Below are positions 32,262 to 63,112 of a stretch of 64,000 bases of DNA, piece by piece; the first letter of the stretch is position 1; each line of letters opens with the position of its first letter. This DNA is from Mustelus asterias (lineage: Eukaryota). The DNA is taken from NCBI RefSeq assembly GCF_964213995.1, contig NC_135821.1, forward strand, positions 39,618,001 through 39,682,000, read 5' to 3'. Made by a program: the position numbers and the translations under genes. Below the pieces are notes generated by a model. The model worked only from the letters and a program-made list of their open reading frames with translations, was not told the origin of the DNA and did not search any database.

Positions 32262-32394
32262 CTCTGACAAAGGGTCATCCAGACTTGAAGCATTGGCTCT
32301 ATTCTCTCCCCACAGATGCTAACAGACCTGCTGAGATTTTCTAGCACTTTCTGTTTTTGTTTCAGATTTCCAGCATCTGCAGTATTTTGCTTTT
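32262..32394 (+). mobile_element. Short non-coding hammerhead-bearing unit (Penelope-tail/retrozyme-like family 2)
   Basis: CTCTGACAAAGGGTCATCCAGACTTGAAGCATTGGCTC..CACAGATGCT..GACCTGCTGAG..TTTCAGATTTCCAGCATCTGCAGTATTTTGCTTTT, homologous to 56736-56970 and 62993-63112. Confidence 0.7.
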
Positions 32395-32399
32395 AACTC

Positions 32400-32805
32400 A
32401 GGTTAATACTCTGGGGATCGGGGTTCGAATCCCACCATGGCAGATGGTGGAATTTAAAATTCACTAAACATCTGGAATCAAAAGTGAAACCATTTTGATT
32501 GTCATGAAACCCTATCTGTTCAAGAATGCCCTTTAGAAAATGAAATCTGCCGTCCTTGCCTGGCGTCACCCTACATGTGATTCCAGATCCACAGAATTTC
32601 TTTTTATTCAATTACGAAATGCGGGCAATGCTGGCTGGGCCAACATTTATTGTCCATCCCTAACTGCCCTCCATCTCCGAGAGCATTTGAGAGTCAACCA
32701 CATTGCTGGTTGACTCTTCAAGGTCAGGGGCAGTTAGGGATGGGCAATAAATGCTGGCCCAGCCAGCGGCACCCACATTCCATGAAAGAATAGTAAAAAA
32801 AAAGA
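32400..32805 (+). mobile_element. SINE-B with internally inverted duplicate of its tail
   Basis: Head/body 32400-32595, reverse-complement tail ~32600-32706, forward tail 32707-32805. Confidence 0.8.
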
Positions 32806-32901
32806 CAATTAATTACTCTGGGTCCGGCAAACCGTTTCTGGACGTTTACCAATGTAGACATTGGTAAATCCTGGAGTGAGTTCAGTGATGATGCCCTCCA
32901 T

Positions 32902-33215
32902 GGGGTGGCACAGTGGTTAGCACTGCTGCCTCACAGTGCCAGGGACCCGGGTTCAATTCTGTGCTCGGGTCACTGTCTGTGTGGAGTTTGTACCTTCTCC
33001 CCGTGTCTGCATGGGTTTCCTCTGGGGGTTCCGGTTTCCTCCCACAGTCCAAAGATGTGCGGGTTAGGTTGATTGCCCATGCTAAATTGACCCTAGTGTC
33101 AGGGGATTGGCAGGGTAAATATGTGGGGTTACGGGAATAGGGCCTGGGTGGGATTGTGGTCGGTGCAGACTTGATGGGCTGAATGGCCTCCTTTTGCACT
33201 GTAAGGATTCCATGT
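32902..33215 (+). mobile_element. HE1/V-SINE, CR1-type tail
   Basis: Full copy. Confidence 0.9.
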
Positions 33216-33294
33216 GGATCTTCTTGAAATCTAGTAAAAGCTACCAACTCTCTCAGGCAAATCTAAATGCCACAGATGCCCAAGTGCCCAGAAT

Positions 33295-33830
33295 TACTGT
33301 GTACAGTTCTGGTCATCCTATTATAGAAAGGATATTATTAAACTAGAAAGAGTGCAGAAAAGATTTACTGGGATGCTACCGGAACTTGATAGGTTTGAGT
33401 TATAAGGAGACGCTGGATAGACTGGGACTTTTTTCTCGGAGTGAAGAATGCTGAGGTCTATAGAGGTCTACAAAATAATGGGGGCATAGATAAGGTAGAT
33501 AGTCAATATCTTTTCCCAAAGGTAGGGGAGTCTAAAACTAGAGGACCCAGGTTTAAGGTGAGAGGGGAAAGATACAAAAGGATCCAAAGGGGCAACTTTT
33601 TCACGCAGAGGATGGTGAGTGTCTGGAACAAGCTGCCAGAGGTAGTGGTAGAGGCGGGTACAATTTTGTCTTTTAAAAAGCATTTATATAGTTACATGGG
33701 TAAGATGGGTATAGAGGGATATGGGCCAAATGCAGGCAATTGGGATTAGTTTAGGGGTTTAAAAAAAAAGGGTGGTTTGCCAAGTTGGGCCGAAGGGCCA
33801 GTTTCCATGCTGTAAACCTCTATGACTCTA
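33295..33830 (+). mobile_element. CR1 3' end
   Basis: YCVQFWS, RGNFFTQRMVSVWNKLPEVVVEAG, CTCTATGACTCTA tail; same subfamily as 51618-52830. Confidence 0.9.
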
Positions 33831-33974
33831 ATTGTACTCCAGCAAACTCCTACTGGTTTTCTTGAGTTTTCTACTCGCCCCACTTCAAACTTTTAACTCC
33901 TCAGCTCTCTGTCCAATTTTCGACACACACCTCACTCCGTGGCCGCTTGAACGGTCAGCATAATGTTCCAATCC

Positions 33975-34670
33975 TTTTCCAAAATGGAAGCAGTGTCAGT
34001 GGACTGGGGGGAATTCAGATACTGCACTCGTATTCAAGAAAGGAGAGAGAGATAAATCTGTCAACTACAGGTCCATCATTCCAATCTCAGTGGAGGGGAT
34101 ACTCTTGGAGACCAGAACCCGAGACAAAAATTGTGCGTTAATAAATTAAAGCCAGCATGCCTTTGATGAATACAAATCATGTTTGATCAACTTGACTTAA
34201 GTTCTTTGATAGAGTAATGGAGAGAGCTGCTGAGGGATACTGTGGTTAATGTTGTGTATAATGGCCTTCAAAAGGTGTTTGATAAACTATCATATAATAG
34301 ACTTGTTAACAAAGTTGAAAATCATAGGATTAAAAGGGCAATGATAGGAAATTGTCTAAGAGACAAAGACGGCAGTAGTGGGGAGAGGTTTGCAGTGGGG
34401 CCCCCAGGAGCTGGGATTGGAACCACTGGTCCTTTGATATATATTTAGAAACGTAGGAAATAGAAGCAGGAAGTAGGCCATTTGGCCCTTCGAGCCAGTT
34501 CTACCATTCATTTTGATCATGGCTGATTATCAAATTTAATATCTATAACTTAGACTTGGGTGTACGGTGTTTAATTTCAAAGTTTACAGATGACTTGATA
34601 CTCAATGATTAGTGAGGGGGATATTACAGACTTTAGGAGGATATAGACTGCTGGAATGGGCAAACACATT
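33975..34670 (+). mobile_element. Old CR1 RT fragment with a short CR1 tail inserted (~34448-34545, minus)
   Basis: AACTACAGG (NYR), CAGCATGCCTTT..TCATGTTTGATCAACTTG, TTTGATAAA, AAGTTTACAGATGAC (KFTDD). Confidence 0.7.
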
Positions 34671-34679
34671 GCTTCATTG

Positions 34680-37600
34680 TGTGGTCAGGATCTAGCAAAG
34701 GGTTTTGGGGATTGTTTATTCTCCCAGAGTATGATGCTCAAGTCTGCAGTTTCTCAAAACCACTAGTCTTTATTTGCAGCAAGCGTTTCAACATTTGGAC
34801 TTCTCCATGAGGTCGAAGCCTCTCCTCCTTCTAGATCTCCCGTACATCTCAGCCATGTGATCTGACAGTGTTACATCAGCATCATATATGCTCCTGATGT
34901 TAACCCTTTACTCCATATCACCGTCCGTAAATCTTTATCCCTATCATATTTATATCTTCCTTCATCGCTCCCTAAAATCTCAAAGCTCACAGGGTTAGCC
35001 TCTGAAGTGCCTTGACCATTCTCTCTGAAGTCATCCTGATCTCCTTTTAAGGTCAAAGATATTCCATGCCTTCCTTTCTGTCAGTGTGAGTGATCTTCTC
35101 CTGGGTGGCTCTAAAGTGTGTAATAGGGCCGCCTTCTTTATCATTAGGATCTGAGTAGTAAGCCCAAATTTATATTGGCTTTCTCTCCAAGGAGATAAAG
35201 GGACTACAGTTTCCTCTTCTGGCCTGTCTCAATCCTGTACGATCTTGAAGGTGGAACTTTTTCGATGAACATGCCTTCCTTCTGTTGCCTTGGACCCACA
35301 ATGTGTCTTTGGGTTTCAGCACTGGTAACTCGTGTGCTCTACATCTGTGATTGAAGTTCCGAGCCTGGTTGCTTCTCTGCTCTTCCTCACGCTATTTTGC
35401 CCTCTCGTGGTCAGTCTTGGTGATATTGGTTTGAGTTTTAGAGATGCAAGCTGTGTTATGAATCACCTACCCTTTAGTAACTCTGATGGTGAGGAACCAT
35501 TTTGTAGGGGGGAGGTTCAATAACACAGAAGGGCTAGTATAAGGTTTTTTTTCTTCAATACATCATTGACGGTTCGTATCCCCTTTCTCAACTTTTCCAT
35601 CCACTTGAGGTTAGCGAAGGGAAGTGGTGACGTGAAAAAAGCAACATTTGTTTGTGTAATAGTGGAATAATTCATTAGCAAAATGCAGCCATTGTCGGAT
35701 ACTGCAACAACCGGGATGCCGTGTGTGGCATAAATTCTCTTGAGGGATTGGGTGATTGCTTTTTCTGTGATACTAGCAATCTGTTTACTTCAATTCACTG
35801 AGAGTAATAACCAATGAGAATCTGGAGGGTTTCCCCCTCAAATTCAAATAACTCCATCCCCAGGCAACCCCACGGCCTTGATGGAAAAGAAGGTAATCAT
35901 TATCCTTTATATTTTTCTTAAGTTTACTTGTTAGTGTCACAAGTAGGCTTACATTAACACTGCAATGAAGTCACTCTGAAAATCCCCCAGTCGCCACATT
36001 TCGGCGCCTGTTCTTGGCTGTTTATGATACAAGTAAGACACTTAGAAATCATTTCTTCTATGGAGTGAGTAACGCCTGACCACAAGGTTGATTGCTGTGC
36101 TCTCATATGAACTTTGCTATTTCAAGATGACCTTCATGAAGCTTTGGAAGATTATCTGTGTGACTATATTCTCATTGAAGACTGGTAAGTCCTCAGTGCT
36201 GTGAGGTTCCTGTGCTGTTCAAAGTGGTGAAGTAGCATCAGATTAGTGGAGATGTCTTGTCATCTTTCCAGTCAATATTCTCAGATTTTGAGACATTCTT
36301 CATCTCATTGCTGCCAGGGATGGTGGTGCAGGCAGACACGATAGGGGCATTTAAGGGGCTCTTAGATAAGTGTATGAAGGTGCAAGGAATAGAGGGATAT
36401 GGATGAAGGGCAGGCAGAAGGGATTGGTTTAATTTGGCAACATGTTTAGCACAACATCATGGGCTGAAGGGTCTCTTCCTGTACTGTACTGTTCTATGTT
36501 CTATTGCTGGGCTTGTTCTGTTTTCCTGCAACATTTTTGCACTAGCTGGTAACTGCTGAATGATTAAGAATGTATATGCTTCAACCTCTTTGATGAAGTG
36601 TAAATCCTCTTGTTTGGTACCTTTTAATGGTATTCTTGACAACATGTCTGCTGTCATTTCATACCTCCTTTGGACTCGTATCTCATCAATCTGAATTTGA
36701 ACTGCTGGATTCCAGGTGGCATCTTCTCAATTTCTTTCATGTCCAGAAGGGTAATGAGTGGTTTACAGTCTGTTTTGATTTTGAAATGCAATCCCACAAC
36801 GCAGTCTGAAAATGTTTTGCATGGGCAAGTTACTGCAACTGCTTCTTTTTCTATCTTGACCTATCAGTGTTCTGTTTCTGTCAGTGAACTAGAGGCATAA
36901 TGGACTGGTCTACACTTGTCATCTCTCTGTACTTTTGCCCCCCAGACCTGTGGACAATGCATCTGCTGCTGCTGTGGTGGTCAATTCTGGGTTGTAATGT
37001 GCCAAGATCTCAATGGAGATTAAATGTTGCTTAATGCTTTCAAAAACATTTGGCTGGTCCACATTTCAGCACCACTATTCACCCTGTCTCAACAGTTGTC
37101 TCAAGGGCTCTTTGTCCGCTACTAAATTTGGTAGGATCTTGCCAACTTGGTTGACCATCCCAAGGCATCAGTGACACTCAGTTATGTTCCTGGTCTGTGG
37201 AAATTCCATGATTATTTTTGTTTTTTGTCGATTAACTGTAATTCTACTGGTTTATACTATATGACCAAGAAGCCTGACCATAGGTTTGGGGTACTCACAT
37301 TTTTCACTCAATGTTAGGCCTGTATCATGTAAGATGTTTGGGACTGCTCTGATACTGAGATCATGCTCTTCTCTTGTGGAGCCATGCGTATGACATCCAT
37401 ATGGCATATTACTCCTTCCATATCTTCTTGAGTGTGGGACATTGTTCCCTGGAAATTTTCTGGAGCGGACGCTCAAGGGTGAGCTAGTGAAGCAATAATG
37501 ACTGAACAACACTATAAAATGTAGTCAACAATCTGGGTTCTTTGTCCAGAAGCAATTGCCAAAATCCACTCTTTGCACCCTATTTGGCAAATAAAGCACT

Positions 37601-38410
37601 CTTGGCTGGTTTGACAAGGCTCTCATCCATTGAGCCCATTGGGTGGATCTCACATTCCACTGGTTTAGTTGCGTTAAATGCAGATTCCTCTCAAACTGTT
37701 TGGTTTTGGAACTATAACCATTCCTGAACACCATTCCGTTGGCAAGGTGACTCGTGAGATAATGCCTTGCTGTTGCATCTTTTCAGTTGCACCCTTGACT
37801 TTGTCCAAGAATTGGTGAGGGGCCGTCCTCAGTGTAAAGAGGAAAACTGGTTTAGCATCACCTGATATGCTACTCAGTCTTTAACTTCCCTGGGCCTGTA
37901 AACAGTTTTGGAAATTTTGAAATGTATTGCTGTAATTCTCATCAGTAACTTCATCCACTTTATAGATTAATTTCACTTTTAGATGTGCCTTTTCCACTCA
38001 GCAGCGAGCATTCTTGATTTTGAATGACATAGAGAGGTTTGAGAATTTCTCAATCTTTATATTTCAACTTTGCCTTGAGTTGACCTTTGACTTTTAAAGT
38101 TGCCCCACCAGGAACTTCTGATTTGATAGATATGGGATTGAAATCCGACCTGTCTGAGCTATTTGACTTCATCTCAGAAAACAGAAACCCCTGCTCCCGT
38201 GTTTAGCTTTTGAAACTCTTTGGGGTGTCCATTCACTTCCAGTTCAATACACCATGATTTGTTTTCAATTTCATTTCCCTTTCCAATGAAGGTTAATACC
38301 TTTGTGGTTCTGCTTTTTGTACGTGGCTCTGTTTTACATTTTTCTCCCGTTTTTTTGCATGTTGTCAGTGTTTTTGATCAACAAGCAGTTTTGAAATGAA
38401 CTGATTGGTA
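34680..38410 (-). mobile_element. Decayed Ty3/Gypsy LTR retrotransposon (gag end, PR, RT, RNase H, IN, PPT, probable 3' LTR)
   Basis: Minus-strand remnants in Gypsy order: HFKTAC*SK (CCHC end, ~38390), KLNTGAGVSV (protease, ~38200), CHMD..HGSTREEHD and GLTLSEKCE..LLGHIV (RT), ILAHYNPELTT..ADA.STGLGA and IEKEA (RNase H), LKRIYATHGIPVVAVSDNG (integrase, ~35700). Purine tract at ~34965-34980. Many stops and frameshifts; nested HE1 (35920-36010) and CR1 (36295-36505). Confidence 0.85.
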
Positions 38411-38411
38411 G

Positions 38412-38572
38412 AGAACCCTACAGTGCAGAAGGAGGCCATTTGGCCCATCGAGTCTGCACCGACTACAATCCCACCCAGACCCTATCTCCATAACCCCAAG
38501 TATTTAGCCCAGCTAGCCCCCTTGACACTAAGGTGCAATTTAGCATGGCCAATCAACCTAACTTGCACATCA
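38412..38572 (-). mobile_element. HE1 3' fragment
   Basis: CR1-type tail plus end of core. Confidence 0.8.
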
Positions 38573-38990
38573 TTGTATGTTACAACTGTTCCACAATAAA
38601 TGTGCCATCTGAGATGTGTGCCCATGTATTATTACTTGTAGGTTCTTAGTGTTGCATGTTTATATAATCTGTTGTCTAAACTTAGAGGGATGCTTTCAGT
38701 TTTTATTGTATAAGGACCCTCTTGTAATTAGCTTTGTCTCAAGCCAAATACGTCCAAGAAAAAGTACATATGTACAACCTTGAGTTTAGTTTTTCCACTA
38801 AGAACTGTGTAGTCTTTACAGCAGCAGCCTCATATTTCAACTGGTTTTTTGTTGCTATGCATAACTTCAGGTGTTTCTCTCCCCTAAAAGAAGTAGCTTG
38901 CAGTGGCCCCGCAAAACTATTTCTGCACGATTGTAGCACCCTGCTCTCACTGCTGAATAATCTTCTCGCTTATGTGGTTCATTCCCACCA

Positions 38991-39267
38991 TGATGCGCGA
39001 TTGATCCACACGGGAGACAAGATCGCACCCGGGAATAAAGGCTTTTATTCACAACAAGAATAGAGCACACTGCTTAACAATATTATCCCAGACTAAGGGC
39101 TACTATGAAGTAGCAGTGACCTTTATACCCCTGTAAGAAGGCGGGGCCAAACGGAGTGTACCACAGAACAATGCTAACAGGTGGAACACCCCAACCCTAA
39201 CCCCAACAGCAACAAGAATAACATATGTACAAGTACCCATAGTGGTAACCATCTATGGTTCACCACA
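38991..39267 (-). mobile_element. Solo LTR (277 bp)
   Basis: TG...CA termini, 5-bp TSD CACCA (38986-38990 / 39268-39272), minus-strand TATAAA (~39122-39127) upstream of AATAAA (~39044-39049). Confidence 0.8.
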
Positions 39268-40804
39268 CACCACATCAAAGACATTTCAAAATGGCTGTTG
39301 GCACACATTTCTCCATCTGATGGGCTTAGGTTTTGGCATGCTTTCTCTTTTATGGCCTATAAACGGAGTGATCTCACTCGATCACCTCTAGGGGACCTCT
39401 CCTTCCCTGCGATTCTGTTTCCTGAATTCATTTTGCCTGACAATCTGCACTGCTTTCACTAGTATTGAATCCTCTGTTGACTAAGAAACCTGATGATGCT
39501 TCTCTCGGACCCTGGCTATGAGCTTGTCTCAAATTAACTCATCATTTAAGATTCTGTTGCCACATTTCCCTGCCAGCCTGTAAGGATTGTTGATGAACAA
39601 ATCCAAGCTTTTGCCTGATCTTTGCTTTCTTTTATTAAACACCAATGCATGCTGAAAGCTTTCAGGATGTCAAAGTCCCATCAACCCCCTGCCTTGCTAC
39701 CACATTGTCAGAGATAGATCCCACTGCATCAATTAGTGTGCTGACTTGATCTTTTTAAAAAATCTTTTTATGTGTAATCCTGAACCTTTTTCTCCAGTTG
39801 TCCCAACTCTGGGCCTGTTGTGAGCCACCTGCACTTTGAAATGGTTTTGGGAGTGGTAGTCTGGATTCGTCTACCACTCTACTACTGCTTCTGTTTGTCC
39901 AAAAACATTCCCAAAGGTCTCAACCAGTCCCGACACTGTATATTGCTAAAATATCACCTTTATATGACCTAATATCAAGCCTGCCTACAGGCCTTTCTAT
40001 TTTGATATCAATTTACTCCATGGGTTAGCTGCTGACTAATCTCTGACTCATGGTCCATTAGCTCAAAGGTTCCCTTGAGAAATGTCCTCTCTATATCATT
40101 GACCTCTTCTATTTGTCATCCACCCCCATCCACTCTTTTCCTGGTGATTCCACTTTGCTTGCATTACCCTCCTGCTCATTGCAAGCTTTCAATCTGATTA
40201 TCAGCCTGATAGCTACAACCTTTGACCTTCTTTATTCATCAGCACGTTTGGGGCCATCCATCTTCGCAAACCTCCCGTTCAACTCTCAAATCATCATCTA
40301 CCTCAAAGCTATTTTCCTCTATCAAGCCACCTCCTCTACAGCTCTTAACTCTGCAAGGAACGAAATGATGTCCATCTGAGCGTATTGCTCCTATGTTTCG
40401 GGAGCTCTGTCAGTGTTTATCTGATCCCCCTGCAAGGTTACAAAGACAGATCTGTTGTTCATCTGCAACATCACCCTCAACTTTCCTTGCATTTGACTAT
40501 TTCACAATGGTCAAAGTTCATCTGAACCTCCCTCTCTTTTTCCTCCATAGTGTATGATTATTGTGTTAAATGAAGACACACTCATCTAAAGGATCCAATA
40601 CTAACTACCTCAAAAGCGAGGTGCCTCTTTTCACCTCCCCCTGTCCTTTCCTCTTTTAATGATCTTAAGAAATTTACAATATAAGTTAGGCATTACCCAA
40701 TTCTTCATCTTCCCGTTTACTGCAACTAAGGTAATGTCCTGTACTGTGGGCTTCAGTTCTCCACTGCTCTGGAAAGAAATAGCCATATAGCCTCCTCAAA
40801 TGGT

Positions 40805-41163
40805 AAGGCAATGGTCTAGTGGTATTGTCGCTAGACTTTCAATCCAGAAGCTCCTCTAATGTTCTGGGGACCCGGGTTCAAATCCTACCACGGCAGATGG
40901 TGTAATTTGAATTCAATAAAATATATCTGGAATTAAGAATCTACTGATGATCGTGAAACCATTGTTGATTGTCGGAAAAACCCATCTGGTTCAATAATGT
41001 CCTTTAGGGAAGGAAATCTGCCGTCCTTACCTGGTCTGGCCTACATGTGACTCCAGAGCCTCAGCAATGTGGTTGACTCTCAACTGCCCTCTGGCAACTG
41101 GGGATGGGCAATAAATGCTGGCCAGACAGCGACGCCCATGTCTCACAAATGAATTTTTTTAAA
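40805..41163 (+). mobile_element. SINE-B copy (near full length)
   Basis: Head, body and tail shared with other copies. Confidence 0.9.
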
Positions 41164-42214
41164 TACAGGCTCTCTACCTTATTGTAGCTCAGACGATGAA
41201 TGGTGGTCAGCTCGGCAAAGTGTGAAGGCACCACACATCACTTGTGAAACAGCATCCAAGCAGAAGTCAACAACTTAAGGAAGCACGAGGAGAAAAGGGA
41301 CTGAAGATGAGGAAGTGCGGTCCTGACTGGGAGCAAAATCTTCTGCTTTTATGGTATCAGTTCTATACTCCACCACCATCGCCCCTCCCAAACTATCCCT
41401 GACACTCACCGGACAGGCAAAATCAGTGCCAATTTCACCACTTTATCTCAAATGGATTCTTTGTAGTCAGCGCCAGCAGGTGATCCTATTCTCCAAATGT
41501 ATGATTTCCTTCTTCCTCACAGACTTTAATGAATTGTGATAATAAAAATAAATGGGATATCGAATGCAACATAAACGATGGAATATTCATGGCTGCCTTG
41601 TCAGACTGAAATTATTTTTTCCCCCAGCAGCTGCCTTCCTGTCACTTTGTGTCTAACATTATGACTTGGCCTGATAACATAATGCTTCAGCTGAAACATT
41701 ATTCAAAATCGCCTGTCTGCAGATTGATAAAGCCCGTGACAGGAGGCATTTTCCCTTGTCTCAGGTATTGTAATGTGCTTCTTATTACAGACAGATGGCT
41801 AGGTGTTTGGGAAAATTATATAGCGTGTACCTTCACTGCGGTGAGGTGGGTGACAGAAGAGGGTGATGAAATGTCTTCAGGCCTCACCTTGCTTATTTTA
41901 AAGCTCTCGTAATTCTGCAGGAGGGAGAACTGAAGGGAGGGGGACGGATGTTTTGCGCTATATTTACCCGCTGTTGTCCTTTAGTCGATCACTATCCGTT
42001 ATCTGCCTTTACTTAAAACCCCAGCTTTGTTTTTCAAGGCATTTTTGCACTGATTTCTGCTCCGTGTACCTCGATTGTGTCACAAGAATGTCCAGGAAAT
42101 CATAACCCTTGCACCAATTAAAACCAACAGATATAAAATTGTGACGTGAAATTGTGCATGAGGTTGTGCAATTTCCTGATGGGTGTGTCAAAGTGGAAAA
42201 TATAGCTGAAGAGG

Positions 42215-42366
42215 CGGCTAGATATAGCACTTGGGGCGATCAGGATCAAAGGTTATGGGGAGAAAGTAGGATTAGGCTATTGAGTTGGGCGATCAGCCAT
42301 GATCATGATAAATTGTGGAGCAGGCTCGAAGGGCCGAATGGCCTCCTCCTGCTCCTATCTTCTATT
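42215..42366 (+). mobile_element. CR1 3' tail fragment
   Basis: Same as 30838-31030 and 58500-58670. Confidence 0.8.
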
Positions 42367-42462
42367 TAGTCAATGGCATGGGAATTAAGAAAGGGACATT
42401 GTAACTGGTTCTACCAGGTTATGTTCTTCTGAGGCAGTCTTTCTTACTCTTGATGTAATGTG

Positions 42463-42835
42463 TTTTTTTTAATTCATTCATGGGATGTGGGCGTCACTGG
42501 CTGGGATGTTTCCCATCCCTAATTGCCCTTGAACTCCCTGAGTGGCTTGCTTGGCCATTTCAGAGGGCATTTTAAGAGTCAGCCACATTGCTATGGTTCT
42601 GGTGTCACATGTAGGCCAGACCAGGTAAGGATGGCAGATTTCCTTCCCTAAAGGACATTAGAGAACCAGATGGGTTTTTCCAACAATCGACAATAATTAC
42701 TTGATCATTATTAGACTTTTAATTCCAGATTTTTATTGAATTCAGATATCGCCATCTGCCATGATGAGATTGGAACCTCAGTCCCCAGAGGGTCTCTGGA
42801 TTACTAGTCCAAGAGTAATACCACTATACCACTGA
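42463..42835 (-). mobile_element. SINE-B copy
   Basis: Reverse complement of family consensus. Confidence 0.85.
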
Positions 42836-48148: not shown

Positions 48149-48149
48149 C

Positions 48150-50884: not shown

Positions 50885-51178
50885 CCTGCAGTGCAGAAGG
50901 AGGCTATTCAGCCCATCGCATCTGCAGTGACAACAATCCCTGTAACCCCATGTATTTACCCCGCTATTCCCCTGACACTAAGGGGCAATTTATCATGGCC
51001 AATCAACCTAACCTATACAGCTTTGGACTGTGGGAGGAAACCGGAGCATCCGGAGGAAACCCACGCAGACTCGGAGAGAATGTGCAAACTCCACACGGAC
51101 AGTCACCCGAGTCCGGAATAGAACCCGGGTCCCTGATGCTGTGAGGCAGCAGTGCTAACCACTGTGCCACAGTGCCAT
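50885..51178 (-). mobile_element. HE1/V-SINE, CR1-type tail
   Basis: Full copy on minus strand. Confidence 0.9.
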
Positions 51179-51229: not shown

Positions 51230-53260
51230 CTGCATCTGAACTATTTGCCTTTACCACTTCATGTGATAGCGAGCTCTTAATCTATCCACTCTGAGTAAAG
51301 AAATACACTTATCTCCTTATCCCTTGTATTTATGACCCCAAATTTGAATTTTCTCACAAGTGGAAACATTCTCTTCGTATTGAGTTTGTCCAACTTCTGT
51401 ATGATTTTAATGACCTTTATCGGGTCACCTTGAGAAAAGCACAGACTTTTCACCATTTCCTGCGAGTTGTAAACTCTCAGTCCTGGCATTGTCCTTGTAA
51501 ATCTATTTTATGCTTCTCCAGTTATTCTACAGTATGTCCCTTTGACCGTATGGAGACTGGAGCTGTGCACATTGCCCTAGGGGTGGCCTGGCCACTGTCC
51601 TAAGCAAGTTTAACATCGAGTCATAGAGGTTTACAGCATGGAAACAGGCCCTTCGGCCCAACTTGTCCATGCCGCCCTTTTTTTAAAACCCCAAAGCTAG
51701 TCCCAGTTGCCTACATTTGGCCCATATCCCTCTATACCCATCTTACCCATGTAACTTTCTAAATGTTTTTTAAAAGACAAAATTGTACTGCCTCTACTAC
51801 TACCTCTGGCAGCTTGTTCCAGGCACTCACCATCCTCTGTGTGAAAAAATTGTCCCTCTGGACACTTTTGTATCTCTCCCCTCTCACCTTAAACCTATAC
51901 CCTCTAGTTTTAGACTCCCCTACCTTTGGGAAAAGATATTGACTATCAAGCTGGTCTGTGCCCCTCATTATTTTATAGACCTCTTTAAGATGACCCCTCA
52001 GCCTTCTACGCTCCCAGTCTATCCAGCCTCTTCTTATAACTCAAACCATCAAGTCACGGTAGCATCCTAGTAATTCTTTTCTGCACTCTTTCTAGTTTAA
52101 TAATATCCTTTCTATAATAGGGTGACCAGAACTGTACGCAGTATTCCAAGTGTGGCCTTACCAATGTCTTGCAGAACTTCAACAAGATGTCCCAACTCCT
52201 GTATTCAATGTTCTGACCAATGAAACCAAGCATGCCGAATGCCTTCGTCACCACTCTGTCCACCTGTGACTCCACTTTCAAGGAGCTATGAACATGTACC
52301 CCTAGATCTCTTTGTTCTGTAACTCTCTCAACGCCCTACCATTAACTGAGTAAGTCCTGCCCTGGTTCAATCTACCAAAATGCATCACCTCGCATTTATC
52401 TAAATTAAGCTCCATCTGCCATTCATCAGCCCACTGGCCCAATTGATCAAGATCCCGTTGCAATCTGAGATAACTTTTTTCACTGTCCACTATGCCACCA
52501 ATCTTGGTGTCATCTGCAAACTTACTAACCATGCCTCCTAAATTCTCATCCTAATCATGACAAATAACAGTACACCCAGTACTGATCCCTGAGGCAACAA
52601 CCCTCTACAACCACCCCCTGGCTTCTGTCATCAAGCCAATTTTGTATCCATTTAGATACCGTGAGATCCCGTGAGATTTAACTTTATGCAACAACCTACC
52701 ATGTGGTACCTTGTCAAAGGCCTTGCTAAAGTCCATGTAGATAACATCAACTACACTGCCCTCATCTACCTTCTTGGTTACCCCTTCAAAAAACTCAACC
52801 AAAGTTTTGAGACATGATTTCACCACTTTAGAATTCAGTACCACCAAAAAATAAATTCCAATTTTTTGTCAACATTTATTATTGGTATGCTGATCTGCAA
52901 TGCTGCTTTCTATAACACCATATGATATAGAAGCAAAATTAGGCCATTTGGCCCATCGGGTCTGCTCCACCATTCAATCATGGCTAATATGATTCTCATC
53001 CCCATTCTCCTGCCTTGTCCCCATAACCCTTGATCTCCTTATTGATCAAGAACCTATCTATCTCTGTCTTAAAGACACTCAATGACCTAGCCTCCACAGC
53101 CCTCTGCGGCAATGAGTTCCACAGATTCACCACCTCATCTCAGTTTTAAAGAAGTGTTCCTTCACTCTGAGGTTGTGCCCTCGCGTTCTAATCTCTCCCA
53201 CTAGTGGAAACATCCTCTCCACGGCCACTCTACCTCGGCCTCTCAGTATTCTGTAAGTGA
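51230..53260 (-). mobile_element. Cluster of CR1 fragments (51230-51615 old; 51618-52830 RT to 3' end; 52925-53260 3' end)
   Basis: YMDFSKAFDKVPH, KFADDTK, LVRPHLEYCVQFWSP, NFFTQRMVSAWN. Confidence 0.9.
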
Positions 53261-53556
53261 GTATTCAATGAGTATTCCTCTATCACATTGTTCTTCTTCC
53301 CTATTTATTTTCTAAGGAGGACGTAATATTTCTTGCTGGATTACCTCACATTTATCTATGTTAAAGTGTATTTGCCTCTTTACTGCTCAGTGTGCAAGTT
53401 CTCTTCTTGTATTATGCAGCAGTCTTTCCCTGCAAATTTTGATGTTTTGACTTGTTCCTAACTTGAAATCATTGTCGATTATGAAGACCAGAGGGGATAA
53501 CACCCGAATCCAAACTGCTCCACTTTGCTTTCACTAGTCAGGCCTCTGTTGTGAGA

Positions 53557-53683
53557 GGGCGGGATTTTCCAGCCGTGTTCATCCCAATGCCGAAAAATAC
53601 CGCCCGGTGTCAATGGAACTTTGCATGGTCTGTGTCCCACCCGCTACGATTCCTGTGGCGGGCAGGATGGGAAAATTCCACCC
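53557..53683. mobile_element. Short TIR MITE
   Basis: GGGCGGGATTTTCC...GGAAAATTCCACCC. Confidence 0.75.
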
Positions 53684-53687
53684 TCTA

Positions 53688-53850
53688 TGTCAGAAGGTTG
53701 GTGATTCAAGAGCCCGTCCTAGACTTGAGCACGAAAACCTCACTCGTGTGCAGTACTGAGGGAGTGCTTCACTGCCAGAGGTGCTCTCTTTCAGGTGGGA
53801 TGTTAAATCGCTTGCCCCCTCGGGTGTACATAAAAAAATCCCATGTCAAT
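53688..53850 (+). mobile_element. Deu-domain SINE fragment
   Basis: GCAGTACTGAGGGAGTGCTTCACTGCCAGAGGTGC..TCTTTCAGGTGGGATGTTAAA..AAATCCCATG. Confidence 0.55.
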
Positions 53851-53927
53851 TGGTTCCAGCATTGATCATTAGGTCCAGTTGATCCCCCCTCCATGGAATG
53901 TCCTCTGCCAGTTCAGTGATATCCCTT

Positions 53928-55282
53928 ACATAAGAACATAAGAACTAGGAGCAGGAGTAGGCCCTCCAGCCTGCTCCGCCATTCAATAAGATCATGGCTG
54001 ATCTTTTTGTGGACTCAGCTCCACTTACGTGCCCACTCACCATAACCCTTAATTCCTTTACTGTTCAAAAATGTATCTATCCTTGCCTTAAAAACATTCA
54101 ATGAGGTAGCCTCAACTGTTTCACTGGGCAGAGAATTCCACAGATTTACAATCCTTTGTGTGAAGAAGTTCCTCCTCAACTCAGTCCTAAATCTGCTCCC
54201 CCTTATTTTGAGGCTATGCCCACTAGTTCAAGTTTCACCCGCCAGTGGAAACAGCTTCTCTGCTTCTATCTTATCTATTCCATTCATAATCTTATATGTT
54301 TCTATAAGATCTCCCCTCATTCTTCTAAATTCCAGTGAGTATAGCCCCAGTCTACTCAGTCTCTCCTCATAAGCCAACCCTCTCAACTCCGGAATCAACC
54401 GAGTGAATCTCCTCTGCACCCCCTCCAGTGCCAGTATATCCTTTCTCAAGTAAGGAGACCAAAACTGTACACAGTACAGGTCTGGCCTCACCAGCACCTT
54501 ATACAGCTGCAACATAACCTTGCTGTTTTTAAACTCCATCCCTCTAGCAATGAAGGACAAAATTCCATTTGCCTTCTTAATTACCTGCTGCACCTGCAAA
54601 CCAACTCCTTGAGATTCCTGCACAAGGACACCCAGGTCCCTCTGCACAGCAGCATGCTGCAATTTTTTACCATTTAAATAATAGTCCATTTTGCTGTTAT
54701 TCCTACCAAAATGGATGACCTCACATTTACCAACATTGTACGCCATCTACCAGACCTTCGCCCACTCACTTAGACTATCTATATCCCTTTGCAGACTTTC
54801 AGCGTCCTCTGCACACTTTGCTCTGCCACCCACCTTCGTGTCATCTGCGAATTTTGACACTACACTTGGTCCCCAACTCCAAATCATCTATGTAAATCGT
54901 AAGCAAGTGCGGTCCCAACACTGATTCCTGAGGCACACCACTAGTCACTGATTACTAACCAGGAAAACACCCATTTACCCCCACTCTTTGCTTTCTGTTA
55001 GTTAATCAATCCTCTATCCATGCTAATACATTACCCGTAACACCGTGCACCTTTATCTTATCTTTGGTGCGGCACCTTGTCAAATGCCTTCTGGGAATCC
55101 AGATATACCACATCCACAGGTTCCCCATTGTCCACTGCACATGTAACATTCTCAAAGAATTCCACCAAATTAGCCAAACATAACTTTCCCTTCATGAACC
55201 CATGCTGCGTCTTACCAATGGGACAATTTATATCCAGATGTCTCGCTATTTCTTCCTTGATGATAGATTCAAGCATTTTCCC
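53928..55282 (-). mobile_element. CR1 RT to 3' end
   Basis: TQHGFMKGKLCLANL, KAFDKVPH, YCVQFWSPYLRKD, (CATAAGAA)n tail. Confidence 0.95.
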
Positions 55283-56735
55283 TGGCAGGTACTGAGTTCC
55301 AGACCTTAATTTGTATGTACAAAAAATATACTCATTTCTTCGCTACTTCTTTTGCCAATTATTGTAATCTGTGACCTTTGGTTACTGACTATTTCTCCCT
55401 ACCTTCTTTATCAAAACTCTTCATTATCTTGAATGCTTCTCTATGTCTCTCCTTAACCTTCTCCACTTTCATGGGAATAGTCCCAGATTATCCAATCTCC
55501 CTGTATAGCTGAAGCACTTCATTACTGGTATTATCCTGTTAAGCTTTTCCATGTCTTTACATTCTCCCTGAAATGTGGTGGCCAGAATGGTACACGTTAC
55601 ACCCCCTGAGGCCTTACCAGTGGTTTGTAGTTTAATGGCGTCTTTGTTTTTGTATTCATTGTCCCTATTTATAAAGCTGAGCATCCCGTATGCTTTATTA
55701 ACCCTTTGATCAACTTGCATTGCCTCCTTCAAAGATTTTGTAAATAAGAACCCCCAGGTCCCTGTGCTCTTCCGTCTCCTCCCTCAAGATAATAATACCA
55801 TCTTGTTCCTCCCAAATTACATCACGTCACACTTATTCTCATTAACTTGGATCTGCCATGTGTCTGTCTGTCCAAACCTATGTAGTCAGAGAATCATAGA
55901 GTGGTTACAGCACAGAGATTTGGCTTGCGGTGTCTGTGCTAACCCTCTACAGAACTCAACTAGTTCCACTTTTGCAGCCTTTACCAGTAACTCTACAAAT
56001 TTTCCCTCTTTGTATGCTTATCCAATTCCCTTTTCATCGATCATAGAATCCCTACAGCGCAAAAGGAGTCTGCACAACCACAATCCCACCCAGGCCCGAT
56101 CCCCATAACCCCATGCATTCACCCTAGCTAGTTCCCCTGACACTAAGGGGCAATTTAGTATTGCCAATCCACTTAACTGGCACATCTTTCGGAGTGTGGG
56201 AGGAAACTGGAGCACCCGGAAGAAACCCATGCAGACACGGGGAAAACTTGCAGACTCCAGACAGACAGTGGCCCAAGCCAGGAATTGAACCCGGGTCCCT
56301 GGCACTGTGAGGCAGCAGTGCTAATCACTGTGCCACCGTATCGTGAAGGCCATGATTGAATCTTCCTCCATCAACATCTCAGTCAATGTTCCAGATCCTA
56401 ACCACTTGCTGTGTAGAAAAGTTCCTCCTCTAATTACCTTTGGTTCTTTTACCATTCACTTTAAATTTGTGTCCTTTGATTCCTTCCATTAATGGGAACA
56501 ATTCCTTGCCATGTATGTTGTTTAGACCACGTGATTTTGAACACTTCCGTCCAATTGCCTATTGACCTCCCTTTCACTAAGACAAAAAGCTCCAGTTTCT
56601 CCAATCCATCCACAGAACTGAAGTGCCTCATCCATCGCACCATTCTCTTTTCAGCACCCTCACACCCTTCCAATGTCCAGAATTGGATGCTAATTGGAGA
56701 CTAAGTCAATGCTTTCTGAAGGCTCATTGTAACTT

Positions 56736-56970
56736 AAATAAAAGCAAAATACTGCGGATCCTGAAATCTGAAACAAAAGTAGAAAATCTCAGCAGGTCTG
56801 ACAGCATCTGTGGAGAGAGAAAAGAGCCAACGTTTCCAGTCTGGATGACCCTTTGTCAGAGCTGCTGACCCTGCTCTGACGAAGGGTGATCCTGACCCAA
56901 AAGATTGGCTCAATTCTCTCTCCATAGATCCTGTTAGACCTGCTGAGTTTTTCCAGCATGTTCTATTTTG
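56736..56970. mobile_element. Inverted pair of hammerhead-bearing family-2 units
   Basis: Left arm 56736-56862 (minus): CTGACAA-AGGGTCATCCAGACTG-GAAA-CG-TT-GGC. Right arm 56873-56970 (plus): CTGACGA-AGGGTGATCCTGACCC-AAAA. 10-nt spacer between them. Confidence 0.8.
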
Positions 56971-57754
56971 GCTACTATAACTCCTTTGTTTTGTCTTCTA
57001 TTTATAAAGCCAGAAACCTGCATGTATTGTTGATAACTTTCTCAACCCGCTTACCCACCTTCAATGATTTTGTTCACCTATACCCAGCCTGGGTCTCTCT
57101 GTCCCTGCACCCTGTTTTAGAACTACACTTTTTAAATGAGATTGCCTTTCATTATTCTTCCCATCAAAATGTATCACTTCACATTTCTCTGCCGTAAATT
57201 TCAGCTGCCGCATGTCCACCCACTCCACCAGCCTGTCAGCATCCTCATCAAATCTCTCCCTATTCTCCCCACAGTTCACAACACTTCCAAGTTCCACGCC
57301 ATCTGCAAATTTTGAAAATAAGCCCCGCACACTGGAGGCCCAGTCATTAACATAGATCAAGGAAAGCAGTAATCCTAACACTGACACTTGGGAAACGCCA
57401 CTGCAATCCGATAAACCACCGCAATCCTTTTCCTGTCACTCAACTAACTTTGTACCCATTCTGCCACTGTCTTTTTCATTTTCTGGATTTTAGCTTTGCT
57501 GGAAAAGCTATTATATAGCAGTTTGCCAAATCTGCTTGAAGTCTGCTACTGTCTTCCTCATTATTTGTTACGTTGCTTAGTTTTGTATAATCCACATTAT
57601 ATTCCCTACATCCAAGTCTAGCTCATTTACATAAAATGAGTAAAACAATAATCCTGATATTGAGGCACCACTCTGCACACTTCTCTCCGGTCAAAATAAT
57701 ATCCATTCAGCACTCCCCTCTGTTTCCTCTCCCTTAATCAGTTAGCTACCCAAG

Positions 57755-57987
57755 TGTAACAACTTTAATCAGGCAATTGAGGTCAGCTTACTTGAATATC
57801 AACTCCCTGATTAAGGGCCAAATTGATAGTCCAATCACGGACCATGCTCTGTACTTAAACCGGAGTGTCAGTTCCTCTGGCACCCCGGATGTCGACTACG
57901 TACTGAGAGCACTCTGTACAGTGTTGTTGGATCTTGTAAATAAAGGAATTTTGGTGAAGGGACTTCCACCTCCAAGGAATTATTACA
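57755..57987 (+). mobile_element. Solo LTR (233 bp)
   Basis: TGTAA...TTACA termini, 5-bp TSD CCAAG (57750-57754 / 57988-57992), CCAAT and AATAAA (~57939). Confidence 0.85.
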
Positions 57988-58232
57988 CCAAGTTAGCACC
58001 ATCTCTTTATTTCCCTGGGCTAATCATTTCCCGATCAAGTCTGTCAAGCGATACTATCTCAAATACCCTGTGACTACCCATTTACTGCATTGTCCTCATC
58101 ACCCATTTCTGTTCCTTTATCAAAGAACTCTACCATAGCCACAACTGATCTGCTGTTAACAAACCCTTGCTGACAGTCTTTTATCAATCCATCCTTCTTT
58201 GAGTGAGAAATAATTTTGTCTTTGATAATGTT

Positions 58233-58368
58233 GGGTGGAATTTTCCGGCCATTCACACCGGTGGGATTTTCCAATCCCGCTGCAGTGAACGGAGATTTGG
58301 CTGAGCACCAAATTCTCCATCCTTGCTTGCCGCAGTGGCGGGGCGTGAATGGCTGGAAAATTCCAGCC
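58233..58368. mobile_element. Short TIR MITE
   Basis: 24-bp imperfect TIR GGGTGGAATTTTCCGGCCATTCAC / GTGAATGGCTGGAAAATTCCAGCC, flanks GTT/ATT. Confidence 0.8.
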
Positions 58369-58754
58369 ATTCCCTCATAATTTTCCTGCCGCTGGCACGA
58401 GACTGTTGTTGGAGTGGCTAACCAGTGGTTACCAGGTTTATTTCTCCTTTGTTTTTGATTATCCTTTGCAATCTTCCAGTCTTGGACACTACTCGCCCAT
58501 AGAAATGTAGAAGATAAGAGCAGGAGGAGGCCATTTGGCCCTTCGAGCCTGCTCCACCATTCATTACGATCATGGCTGATCATCCAACTCAATAGCCTAA
58601 TCCTGCTTTCTCCCCATAACCTTTGATCCCATTCCCCCCAAGTGCTATATCCAGCCGCCTCTTGAATACATTCAATATTATCATCCAGAAAAAAAATTGA
58701 GAGATTCTGATTATAGCTGTTATTTCACCACAGTTTCCCTTATCAACCTAGATA

Positions 58755-61700
58755 CATAAGAACATAAGAACATAAGAAATAGGAGCAGGAGTAGGCCATC
58801 TGGCCCTTCGAGCCTGCCCCGCCATTCAACAAGATCATGGCTGATCTGAAGCGAATCAGTTCCACTTACCCGCCTGCTCCCCATAACTCCTAATTCCCTT
58901 ATCGATCAGAAAACTATCTACCCGTGATTTAAACATATTCAACGAGGAAGCCTCCACCACTTCAATGGGCAGAGAATTCCAGAGATTCACTACCCTCTGA
59001 GAGAAGAAGTTCCCCCTCAACTCTGTTCTGAACCGGCCCCCCCTTATTTTGAGGCTGTGCCCTCTAGTTCTGGTTTCCCTTCTAAGTGGAAACAATCTCT
59101 CCACCTCTACCCTATCCAGCCCCTTCATTATCTTATATGTCTCTATAAGATCACCCCTCTTCCTTCTAAACTCCAATGAGTACAGACCCAATCTGTTTAA
59201 TCTCTCCTCATAAGCTACACCCCTCATCTCCGGTATCAACCTGGTGAACCTTCTCTGCACTCCCTCCAAGGCCAATATATCCTTTCGCAAATAAGGGGAC
59301 CAAAACTGCACACAGTACTCCAGTTGCAGCCTCACCAGTGCCTTGTACAGTTGCAGCAAGACCTCCCTGCTTTTATATTCTATCCCCCTCGCGATAAAGG
59401 CCAACATTCCATTCGCCTTCTTGATCACCTGCTGCACCTGCAGACTGAGTTTTTGCGATTCGTGCACAAGGACCCCCAGGTCCCTCTGCACAGTCGCACG
59501 ATGTAATTTTTCTCCATTTAAATAATATTCCAATTTACTATTATTTCTTCCAAAGTGGATAACCTCACATTTGCTAACGTTATATTCCATCTGCCAGATC
59601 CTCGCCCACTTGCTCAGCCTATCCAAATCTCTCTGCAGACTTTCCGCGTCCTCCACGCAATTCGCTTTCCCACTCACCTTCGTGTCATCAGCAAACTTGA
59701 ATACCCTAGATTCAGTCCCCTCCTCCAGATCATCTATGTAAATGGTAAACAATTGAGGCCCCAGCACCGATCCCTGCGGCACGTCACTGGTCACCAACTG
59801 CCAACCAGAAAAGCACCCATTTATCCCAACTCCCTGCTTCCTGTTAGATAGCCAATCCCCAATCCACGCCAACACCTTACCCCTAACTCCGTGTGCCCCA
59901 ATCTTCTGCAGCAACCTTTTGTGAGGCACCTTATCGAACACCTTCTGGAAATCTAAAAACACCACCGGTTCCCCTCTGTCAACCGCACTAGTGACATCTT
60001 CATAAAAGTCCAGTAGATTCGTCAAACACGACTTTCCCTTCATGAATCCATGCTGCGTCTGCTTGATCGAACCATTCTTATTCAGGTACTCTGTTATTTC
60101 CTCTTTAATAATGGACTCTAGCATCTTCCCAACTACGGACGTTAAGCTAACCGGCCTGTAGTTACCCGCCTTTTGTCTACTTCCTTTTTTAAACAGTGGC
60201 GTAACAGTAGCTGTTTTCCAGTCAGCCGGCACTACCCCAGAGTCCAGCGAATTTTGATAAATTACTCCTAACGCATCTGCTATTACCTCAGCCATTTCTT
60301 TCAGTACCCTGGGATGCATTCCATCCGGGCCCGGGGACTTGTCTACCTTCAGTCCTATTAGTCTACCAAGCACCACCTCCTTAGTAACAGTAATTGTATT
60401 AAGGACCTCCCCTCCCACCAACTCTCAATCTCTAATATTCGGCAAACTATTTGTGTCTTCCACCGTGAAGACCGACACAAAGAACTTATTTAAAGTCTCA
60501 GCCATTTCCTTGTTTTCCACTATTAAATCCCCCCTCTCATCTTCCAAGGGTCCAACATTCACTCGAGCCACTCTATTCCTTTTTATATACTTGTAAAAAC
60601 TTTTACTATCATTTTTTATATTTTGAGCTAGTTTAGTTTCATAATCTATCTTTCCTTTCTTAATCGCTTTCTTAGTCGTTCTTTGTTTTTCTTTAAAGCT
60701 TTCCCAATCCACTAATTCTCCACTATTTTTGGCCACTCTGTACACATCTGATTTTATTTTAATACTCTCCTTTATTTCCTTCGTTATCCACGTCCGGTTA
60801 TCCTTTTTCTTACAGTCCTTCTTTATCACCGGAATATATTTTTGCTGAGTACTTTAAAAAATCTCCTTAAAAATCCTCCACTGTTCCTCAGCTGTCCTAC
60901 CTACCAGTCTGCTCGCCCAGTCTACATTAGCCAATTCCACCCTCATCCTATCGTACTCCCCTCTGTTCAAGCAGAGGACACTGGTTTGGGACCCTACTTT
61001 CTCACCCTCCATCTGTATCAGAAATTCCACCATATTATGATCACTCATCCCAAGAGGATCCTTCACAAGAAGATCCTTAATCCTACCTGTCTCATTGCAC
61101 AGAACCAGATCCAAGATAGCTCGCTCTCTCGTAGGTTCTGTAACATACTGTTCAATGAAACAATCCCGACAGCATTCCAAGAACTCTTCTTCAAGCCCTC
61201 CACGTCCAATTTGAGTCGACCAATCAATATGTAGGTTAAAATCCCCCATGATTATTGCCGTTCCACTTTTGCACGCATCCATTATTTGCTTGTTTATAGC
61301 CCTCCCCACCTCTAAGTTATTATTTGGGGGCCTATAGACCACGCCTACCAGTGTCTTTCTCCCCCTACTATTCCTTATCTCCATCCACAACGATTCCACG
61401 TTTTGCTCCTTAGAGCCTATGTCGTCTCTCACTACCATCCTGATATTATCCTTTATTAACAAAGCTACCCCACCTCCTTTTTCTACCTGTCTATCCTTCC
61501 TAAATGCCTGATAACCCTGTATATTCAGTTCCCAGTCCCGGTCACCCTGCAACCACGTTTCTGTGATGGACACTAGATCATATTCATTTGTATGGATTTG
61601 TGCCATCAACTCATTTACTTTGTTTCGAATGCTTCGTGCATTCAGGCAAAATGTCTTTATGCCAGCCTTTATCTGGACCCGGTTTGTTGAAGCGCTACTA

Positions 61701-62157
61701 ACATCTCCCAAGCCCTCTCCTCCTTTAGCTAGTTGTTTATTCACTATACTCCTGGCATTAGAGTAGACACATCTCAATCCTATGGTCTGACCTCTCCCCT
61801 TCTCTGTTCCCAGTCCACCTGCCCTCTTGCACTGCCTATAACCCTTCTCTGTTTGCGAGCTACCTTCCTCACTCTCAGTCACGTCACTTTGATCCCCTCC
61901 CCCCAACCTATCTAGTTTAAACTCTCCCCAGTAGCCTTAGCCAACCTTCCTGCCAGGATATTGGTCCCCCTGGGATTCAAGTGCCACCCGTTTTTAGTAT
62001 ACAGGTCACACCTGCCTCTAAAGAGGTCCCAATGGTCCAGGAACCTGAATCCCTGCCCCCTGCACCATTCCCTCAGCCACACATTCATCCTCCACCTCAC
62101 TCCATTCCTTTCCTCACCTTCCCGTGGCACAGGCAGCAATCCCGAGATTACTACATC
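58755..62157 (-). mobile_element. Near full-length CR1 LINE: ORF1 C-terminus (SGNH-esterase-like) + ORF2 with two in-frame stops
   Basis: ORF1 LLPVPR..WLREWCRGQGFRFLDHWDLF..HLNPRGT..LN* (61912-62155). ORF2 APE (ITETWL, GDFN, SDHN) and RT (FADD) lie in one frame broken only by TAA (60854-60856) and TGA (60425-60427). (CATAAGAA)n tail. Confidence 0.97.
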
Positions 62158-62875
62158 CCACGAGGATTGGGTGGCCTGTTAATTTTGAGTGTTGACAACC
62201 TATTCAAACGTCCTCACTAACTATTTTTATCCTTCTTCCTCACCCTGTGCTGCAATATGAATTTCATCCCCTTCTTTAAGAGAGAGAGACAGAAAGACAG
62301 AGATAGTTTGGTTCCACTGAAGTCAATGAACAAGAGTTAGAGCAGAGAGGGTATTCAGTTTATTGGAATAATTGACCTGATTATCAGACAGGCTCGATAA
62401 CAGGCAGCCGACACAATGACACGCGCCAAGCTGAATACCTACCCAGAGGACCATCAGTTTTAAATTTGACGGTTTACATTGGCACTTTTGGAAGTAAACA
62501 GGATGACATAACATTTCTGACTTTACAGAGGCAGGATTCAAAATTCATTGCAATCACATATGGCTTCATTTTTTCAATTTGTAAAACAATAAAATATTCT
62601 TTTACTCTAGTATAGAAGACTGAGCCATTTGAAATTTAATAAAAAAGGCTGGAGGGTTCGACAAGGTAGATGCTGGCTGAAACAAGGGAACATTAAAATC
62701 CGATGAATCTCTTGTTTCTCTCCCTACAGTTGCTGCCTGTCCTGCTGAGCCTTTCCAGCATTTTCTCTTTTCATTATCTTAAAATGAGGGCTAGACAACT
62801 TGGGGAAGCAATTAATACCAAGTGTAAAGAATTTGGAACTCTCTTCTACAAAAGACTGGGGATGCTGGGTCGGCG

Positions 62876-62952
62876 CGGAGGGAGGGGAGGGGGAGGGGAG
62901 GGGGCGGGGGGGTGGAGGGGAGGAGGCGGGGGGGTGGAGGGGAGGTGGTGGG
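62876..62952 (+). repeat. G-rich low-complexity tract (G-quadruplex-capable)
   Basis: About ten runs of three or more G with short loops. Confidence 0.75.
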
Positions 62953-62992
62953 TCAATAGATTTCACGGCAGAGATCGATTGATTTTTTTCTT

Positions 62993-63112
62993 CAGAGTTC
63001 TGAAGAAGATGTGCTCGAAACATTAACTCTGTTTCTCTCTCCACAGAGGCTGCCAGACTTGCTGAGTTTTTGTTTACATTTCAGATCTCCAGCATCCGCA
63101 GTATTTTGCTTT
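62993..63112 (+). mobile_element. Hammerhead-bearing family-2 unit
   Basis: CAGAGTT-CTGAAGA(63000-63006)-AGATGTGCTC-GAAA(63017-63020)-CA-TT-AACTCTG, with a 7-bp stem I, followed by the family tail; a more decayed tail lies at ~62705-62775. Confidence 0.8.

Follow-up and report, generated by a model that had tools for sequence, protein, structure and literature searches.

The window analysed here is a stretch of 64,000 nt of the Mustelus asterias genome (NC_135821.1, positions 39,618,001-39,682,000; genome size 3.68 Gb), in which a short non-coding unit with a hammerhead ribozyme motif occurs several times. The locus raises the question of whether this unit is a mobile family in its own right, as a first-pass annotation had proposed from the letters of the window, or a piece of a larger element. 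The reading we favour, with a probability of roughly 0.7, is that the unit forms the terminal repeat of an autonomous Penelope-like element (PLE), and that its solo copies (stubs) are short complementary DNAs (cDNAs) made from the 5′ end of the uncleaved RNA of that element. Throughout the text, +1 is the A that opens stem I of the hammerhead, and cleavage is predicted after +35 (site +36). Three subfamilies of the unit are referred to: A, B and an older one, D.

Linkage of the unit to an autonomous element

Several of 30 unit loci were found to have common sequence 5′ of the ribozyme. Loci found by this upstream DNA showed graded 5′ truncation over more than 1 kb, reaching into a GIY-YIG endonuclease frame with a CX4CXXC linker, and 16 of 30 subfamily A loci picked in this way matched the endonuclease at 50% identity or more. 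A first look with the endonuclease gave 61,969 candidates, a figure that includes other PLE families and is not a copy number. Among 20 long loci picked by the endonuclease, 18 carried the unit downstream on the same strand, mostly 300-450 nt past the stop codon, and one of the other two contains an assembly gap; the autonomous element carrying the unit downstream, for which the first-pass annotation had suggested a search, was thus found. When 30 loci were picked by the DNA of the N-terminal part of the open reading frame (ORF), seven had the unit upstream and continuous into the element, and two more had it in part. The distance to the upstream unit was about 0.7 kb in six of these seven loci and 0.96 kb in L119, where a short interspersed element (SINE) is inserted between. 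Two of the seven copies (L119 and L126) begin at +2/+1.

Two stop-free stretches, of 732 and 518 aa, each hold both a reverse transcriptase (RT) and a GIY-YIG domain. The Pfam RVT_1 match to the ORF had an E-value of 6e-7 and passes in one stretch (29.8 bits against a cut-off of 29.6), and the GIY-YIG match (E 0.001-0.006) lies below its cut-off; a VYCI...YIGET motif can be read directly in the endonuclease domain. The CX4CXXC linker precedes GIY-YIG and agrees with the CX2-5CxxC criterion for Neptune; it points to a Neptune-type PLE, or equally to Nematis, which has the linker in common with it, as far as these groups are outlined in PMC8557442. The element is about 3.3 kb long, in the order unit, ORF, 3′ untranslated region, TATAAA, 30 nt, unit, a length and two-ended structure that were pieced together from offsets in overlapping loci and not taken from a single intact copy. 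The linkage covers subfamilies A and B on the 3′ side and subfamily B on the 5′ side. Since the unit both follows the ORF and opens full-length copies at their 5′ end, it is almost certainly the pseudo-long terminal repeat (pLTR) end of an RT + GIY-YIG PLE.

The Penelope relationship suggested in the first-pass annotation was thereby confirmed, as was its view that the lineage differs from that of a second hammerhead family in the window with an AAGCTT palindrome, the proteins of the two being 30% identical over 361 aa. The proposed separate, non-autonomous and retrozyme-like unit was not supported; the unit is part of the autonomous element, at both of its ends.

From +56, the unit also contains a short ATG-initiated frame of some 22 codons (e.g., L115 and L126), with an acceptor-like pyrimidine run before it. 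This frame is possibly an upstream ORF; it was rejected as the main ORF, since it meets a stop within the tail in subfamily B.

Start points of the copies

Start points in subfamily A were surveyed by a search with the post-cleavage part only, which leaves out subfamily B. It gave 30 loci, of which the query and one duplicate were set aside. Among the remaining 28 copies, 19 started at -5 to +5, none at -91 to -6 and five at -92 or beyond, past the TATA box; three started at +6 to +12 and one at +39. The head of this last copy was found 0.9 kb upstream, separated by a later insertion, and true starts at +36 numbered 0 of 28. The base at -2 was T in 30 of 32 copies linked to a TATA box and in 8 of 21 solos, which makes the boundary a sharp one; by -2 the solos no longer resemble the parent. 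Most short copies begin at -1/+1 of stem I. Of 58 copies with an exact TATAAA, 53 have its first T at -30, and these come from subfamilies with different spacers. A boundary 30 nt past TATAAA suggests that +1 is likely the transcription start of the element. The first-pass annotation was right to tie the starts to the motif. As to the possibility it had raised, that the copies are mere 5′ truncations of another element with starts unrelated to the motif, a parent element does exist, but the starts are not unrelated to the motif.

Two ORF-bearing copies (L116 and L125) start right at the TATA box, and one of them abuts the tail of the second, AAGCTT PLE family; the A/T-rich TATA box may be a favoured insertion target.

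Several observations weigh against the favoured reading. The 5′ link to the ORF comes from subfamily B only, and the loci of subfamily D, to which the window copy at 62996 belongs, gave no endonuclease link. One of the 19 copies starting near stem I (L242) is doubtful by eye. The placing of the RNA 5′ end at +1 is drawn from DNA alone, and no cap signature emerged when it was looked for in 21 solos, a set that includes three TATA-linked copies that passed the filter (G at -1 in 2 of 21, C in 11 of 21). The sequence before +1 resembles a 3′ splice acceptor. Penelope of D. virilis is described as using a TATA-less internal promoter (PMC2377424), and the TATA reading is therefore not general to PLEs; TATA and initiator (Inr) sequences are mentioned for rotifer pLTRs (PMC3846280). 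The one column in which short and TATA-linked copies of subfamily A differ (see below) is polymorphic, with p 0.004, uncorrected over 100 columns. Finally, in a 1.2-Mb sample of the genome, 21 of 50 copies started at -10 to +10 and 15 at +34 to +44, near the cleavage site; the others started far upstream (one), at +22 to +29 (eight) or later than +44 (five), and the starts of 28 non-reference subfamily D loci were scattered from -3 to +39. Of 21 late starters checked, four have a clear head further upstream, split off by insertions (L235, L274, L277, L314), three are fold-back junctions and the remainder are without a matching reference. The 15 copies at +34 to +44 comprise three fold-back junctions and at least one copy split by a later insertion, and the rest are mostly old and reference-less.

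A repeat with a AAAATCCC-type terminus was observed inside old units (L274, L277, L314) near the stem III palindrome, where it mimics a start at the cleavage site.

The solos might also be 3′-end pieces of the element, 5′-truncated at +1 by a splice acceptor, an RNA processing site or self-complementary AGCT pairing at integration, which we consider unlikely. A pyrimidine run followed by AG can be read directly before the core, an intron end of D. virilis maps to helix I according to PMC4209133, the head folds as an extended hairpin, and, of 10 near-complete head-to-head junctions, two show an overlap of exactly 4 nt. However, the solos have no common upstream exon, and truncation of this kind leaves unexplained both the fixed 30-nt TATAAA spacing and the ORF-bearing copies that start at +1/+2. 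A stall at the hairpin would be expected to fall at its 3′ foot (+39), not past it, and was rejected as the cause of the starts.

Abundance, insertion and lineage of the short copies

Abundance was estimated from 120 stretches of 10 kb at round coordinates on the 26 largest contigs, which make up the 1.2-Mb sample. A 3′-core profile gave 36 + 14 = 50 hits, about 42 per Mb; the first 0.8 Mb gave 36 hits and the same DNA reversed gave none. Extrapolated to the genome, this corresponds to about 1.5e5 arms of the unit, in line with the very high abundance expected in the first-pass annotation. Endonuclease matches at more than 45% identity in the same sample numbered two. The unit was covered by four guessed-RNA contig sets from other organisms, which were not used as evidence, since contigs do not reveal start points, strand or expression level.

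Duplications of 8-15 nt in the flanks were found in 12 of 24 copies compared to 7 of 552 mismatched control pairs, and the stubs are therefore genuine insertions. The 3′ ends of the unit fall at two points about 35 nt apart, so that units measure either about 100 or about 135 nt, in place of the single length of about 130 nt given in the first-pass annotation. Head-to-head pairs (n = 31, many of them picked for one long arm) consisted of a long and a short arm in 26 cases, two short arms in four and two long arms in one; the pair in the window is of the long and short type, like the majority. Head-to-tail tandem units were absent from the window, and neighbours in the examined loci were inverted arms. 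Tails and inverted arms are known PLE traits, as reported in PMC3846280 and PMC8557442. Paired 3′ ends, head-to-head pairing and target duplications are likewise familiar from PLEs.

Pairwise comparison of majority sequences showed that short and TATA-linked copies differ in 1 of 100 columns in subfamily A (22 vs 46 copies) and in 0 of 100 in subfamily B (44 vs 10 copies). In these small samples the short copies thus appear to have no lineage distinct from the autonomous parent, which does not agree with a separate unit of its own.

These comparisons bear on a second alternative, namely that the solos make up a genuine non-autonomous family resembling SINEs or retrozymes, which is itself transcribed and which the PLE protein re-copies in trans. 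Units do outnumber ORF copies (50 vs 2 in the sample), the solos show sharp ends and target duplications, PLE derivatives of that sort are described (bioRxiv 10.64898/2026.07.22.740005 and PMC8557442, as far as these accounts go), and C at -1 is retained in many solos, so a weak initiator could survive. Nevertheless, subfamilies A and B show no separate majority sequence, the solos are without a TATA box, the window contains no head-to-tail arrays and, if the rule found for an anole PLE holds (PMC11167929), the solos are without the downstream RNA that the protein requires; we regard a family of this kind as improbable.

Units bounded by ribozyme self-cleavage like retrozyme monomers, as the first-pass annotation had it, are very improbable: starts near +36 do occur (15 of the 50 sampled copies, 5 of the 30 in subfamily D) and the motif is kept across subfamilies, but true +36 starts were found in 0 of 28 young copies, the short copies begin 35 nt 5′ of the cleavage site with the whole ribozyme kept and end 65-100 nt beyond that site, and seven of the 21 late starters checked are the split copies and fold-back junctions described above.

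Proposed origin of the short copies

In vitro, the anole PLE was shown to start reverse transcription at two internal sites that define the tail and to extend both target strands, with uncleaved RNA as the main template; RNA 3′ of the start site was needed (PMC11167929). The geometry of the stubs in M. asterias is observed in DNA, and we infer from it every RNA step of the following route. TATAAA at -30 would drive transcription from about +1. The PLE protein would nick target DNA and start cDNA synthesis internally, about 100 or 135 nt from the RNA 5′ end; if the anole findings can be applied here, the natural start would be the 5′ pLTR-ORF junction of a transcript beginning at about +1. On a linear, uncleaved transcript the enzyme would run off the RNA 5′ end and leave a promoter-less product, corresponding to the observed 100- or 135-nt stub with the whole ribozyme in and the TATA box out, and head-to-head pairs would arise where both target strands were primed. 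For long copies, the template would have to continue upstream of +1, by way of the 3′ repeat, a tandem read-through RNA, a jump between templates or a circle formed by ribozyme cutting and ligation. Because they are without a TATA box, the stubs are likely dead ends. We think that run-off of this kind is probably the source of the stubs.

A stricter version, in which the approximately 150,000 copies are integrated 'strong-stop' cDNAs, the 5′ pLTR-ORF junction is the sole start site of reverse transcription, stubs that end at the transcription start come from linear uncleaved RNA and each copy reaching past the TATA box derives from a ribozyme-ligated circle or a template jump, is put forward tentatively, and we would sooner doubt it than rely on it as a whole. 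If true, the genome would provide a count of both template states and a direct way to ask what the PLE hammerhead does. Retroviral minus-strand strong-stop DNA is a short cDNA, primed internally and extended to the RNA 5′ end, over a terminally repeated region. Unlike it, the stubs would be primed by nicked target DNA and not by tRNA, and they are integrated; the analogy is one of working, not of membership.

The hammerhead motif and the copies in the window

The motif was parsed in 144 of 321 profile hits (66 of subfamily A, 50 of B, 26 of neither and two mis-parsed); the parsing pattern is unsuited to subfamily D heads, which account for the mis-parsed rows, and D pairings come from copies read by eye. 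In the A and B majority sequences, stem I has 4 bp and stem II 5 bp; the core is present together with one extra A, and a palindrome of four bases stands in for stem III. The predicted motif matches the minimal hammerhead of metazoan PLEs as defined in PMC4209133, and the hammerhead reading of the first-pass annotation thus stands, in the minimal type I form of the Penelope kind. At core positions 3-8, 45 of 66 A copies have a C-G pair and 48 of 50 B copies a U-A pair; the same exchange is noted for PLE hammerheads in PMC4209133. Between A and B, this change from C-G to U-A is accompanied by one from U-G to U-A in stem I, which amounts to few events, with core letters constrained by the search pattern. 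Folding predictions for natural copies include both stem I and stem II.

For both subfamilies (L016:1502-1540 and the L115 unit head), the monomer is predicted to fold into an inactive extended hairpin, with the catalytic core paired to the stem III side. Lunse et al. reportedly described dimer cleavage.

All five copies noticed in the first-pass annotation were present in the window (Table 1), with 74-85% identity in pairwise BLAST comparisons (E 1e-38 to 1e-4), and the four better-preserved ones begin at or within 3 nt of stem I, as had been noted. None of the five has an intact ribozyme when read directly, and an Rfam scan of the window gave no hammerhead match at E ≤ 5. The core of the copy at 32262 is decayed (G8>A and GAAA>GAAG). 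The hammerhead of the minus-strand arm at 56863 has a 4-bp stem I, the core, the extra A, stem II and a palindromic stem III, with predicted cleavage between 56829 and 56828; it carries two core defects, G8>A and a broken G10.1-C11.1 pair. Its partner arm, separated from it by about 8 unrelated bases, has lost G12. In the copy at 62996, stem II is shortened and the palindrome mutated, and a few bases just 5′ of it mirror its own start. A possible 7-bp target duplication was found at the remnant.

The AACGTT palindrome given in the first-pass annotation is the prevailing form in subfamily A (40 of 66 parsed copies), but among the window copies it is kept only in the minus-strand arm at 56863. 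The 7-bp stem I described at 62993 (CAGAGTT/AACTCTG) could not be upheld: three of its bases belong to the junction, and in two copies of this type with natural upstream sequence stem I is just AGTT/AACT (4 bp). It was rejected as covariation on account of the junction bases.

Other repeats in the window

The AAGCTT family (Table 1) gave 139 hits in the 1.2-Mb sample, with two 3′ ends about 35 nt apart. Fourteen of its starts lie at -12 to -3 from the core, and TATAAG was found 35 nt before the core in one of two long copies; the family shows a weaker form of the same start geometry. Long interspersed element (LINE) fragments and two SINE families are also present. The tRNA-derived SINEs look shark-like, and the window SINEs may be HE1 and DeuSINE-like.

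Table 1. Copies of the hammerhead unit and other repeats located in the window.
Feature	Position	Strand	Remarks
Solo unit, subfamily A	32262..32395	+	Long 3′ end; begins at unit +3
Long arm of head-to-head pair, subfamily A	56739..56864	-	With tail of about 35 nt; +1 at 56863
Minimal type I hammerhead of this arm	56825..56863	-	Motif as defined in PMC4209133
Short arm of head-to-head pair	56873..56969	+	Tail absent
Remnant of older, more diverged copy	62713..62771	+	Only part 3′ of ribozyme recognisable; head missing
Solo unit, older subfamily D	62996..63114	+	Long 3′ end; stem I AGTT/AACT
Second PLE family (AAGCTT hammerhead)	296-1512	+	1.2-kb 5′-truncated copy, 91% like L097
Second PLE family (AAGCTT hammerhead)	24341-24532		Head-to-head pair
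Broken LINE ORF	1769-2362	-	RT fragment
Broken LINE ORF	5890-8789	+	Apurinic/apyrimidinic (AP) endonuclease + RT
Broken LINE ORF	58856-61936	-	AP endonuclease + RT
tRNA-derived SINE	e.g., 16544-16879, 29548-29961, 50974-51175		Many copies
Second SINE-like family	e.g., 40806-41093		One copy begins at about 32410, right after the 32262 copy

Relation to known elements and significance

The element shares with Neptune and Nematis PLEs, as described in PMC8557442, RT followed by GIY-YIG in one ORF, the CX4CXXC linker, a pLTR hammerhead, a 30-40-nt tail, inverted 5′ arms and heavy 5′ truncation; unlike in those PLEs as presented there, most copies here are one sharply bounded 100/135-nt piece. Its motif shares with the minimal hammerheads of metazoan PLEs, in the account of PMC4209133, the short helix I, the extra base between 9 and 10.1, G10.1-C11.1, the palindromic 15.2-16.2 and the U3-A8 variant. 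Thousands of single minimal hammerhead motifs are ascribed to truncated PLEs by Cervera and de la Pena (2014, PMC4209133). The term shark is absent from the two supplements of that paper that were searched, and a start-point analysis, given here for the present family, is not part of its results and discussion.

Poseidon of Anolis carolinensis (PAc; Frangieh 2024, PMC11167929) likewise has two RT start sites that define the tail, located about 110 nt beyond the hammerhead, an uncleaved RNA template and priming of both strands. It belongs to a different PLE clade, and its ORF begins in stem II, whereas the long ORF here appears to begin downstream of the unit. Non-LTR retrozymes and Sm-alpha resemble the unit in being non-coding and PLE-related with a type I hammerhead, judging from the accounts in bioRxiv 10.64898/2026.07.22.740005 and PMC6765202. 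Retrozymes are described there as tandem repeats with a ribozyme per unit, whereas copies of the family here are dispersed or in head-to-head pairs and correspond to part of their autonomous parent. The former of these accounts links retrozymes to PLE pLTRs, and its supplements include one cartilaginous fish.

In a literature search, made mostly without full texts, neither the family nor stubs bounded at TATA+30 were found to be described; a family this abundant is probably already catalogued in Dfam or Repbase. The family itself is ordinary, PLE ends with minimal hammerheads being known to litter animal genomes. The useful point is the sharp start 30 nt past a TATA box and 35 nt ahead of the cleavage site, which fits the in vitro copying of uncleaved PLE RNA from an internal start and suggests that solo hammerhead stubs can arise without a non-autonomous lineage. 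In annotation, such stubs belong under PLE ends and not under SINEs or retrozymes, and they provide a large natural dataset for asking what the PLE ribozyme does and how partial tandems originate.

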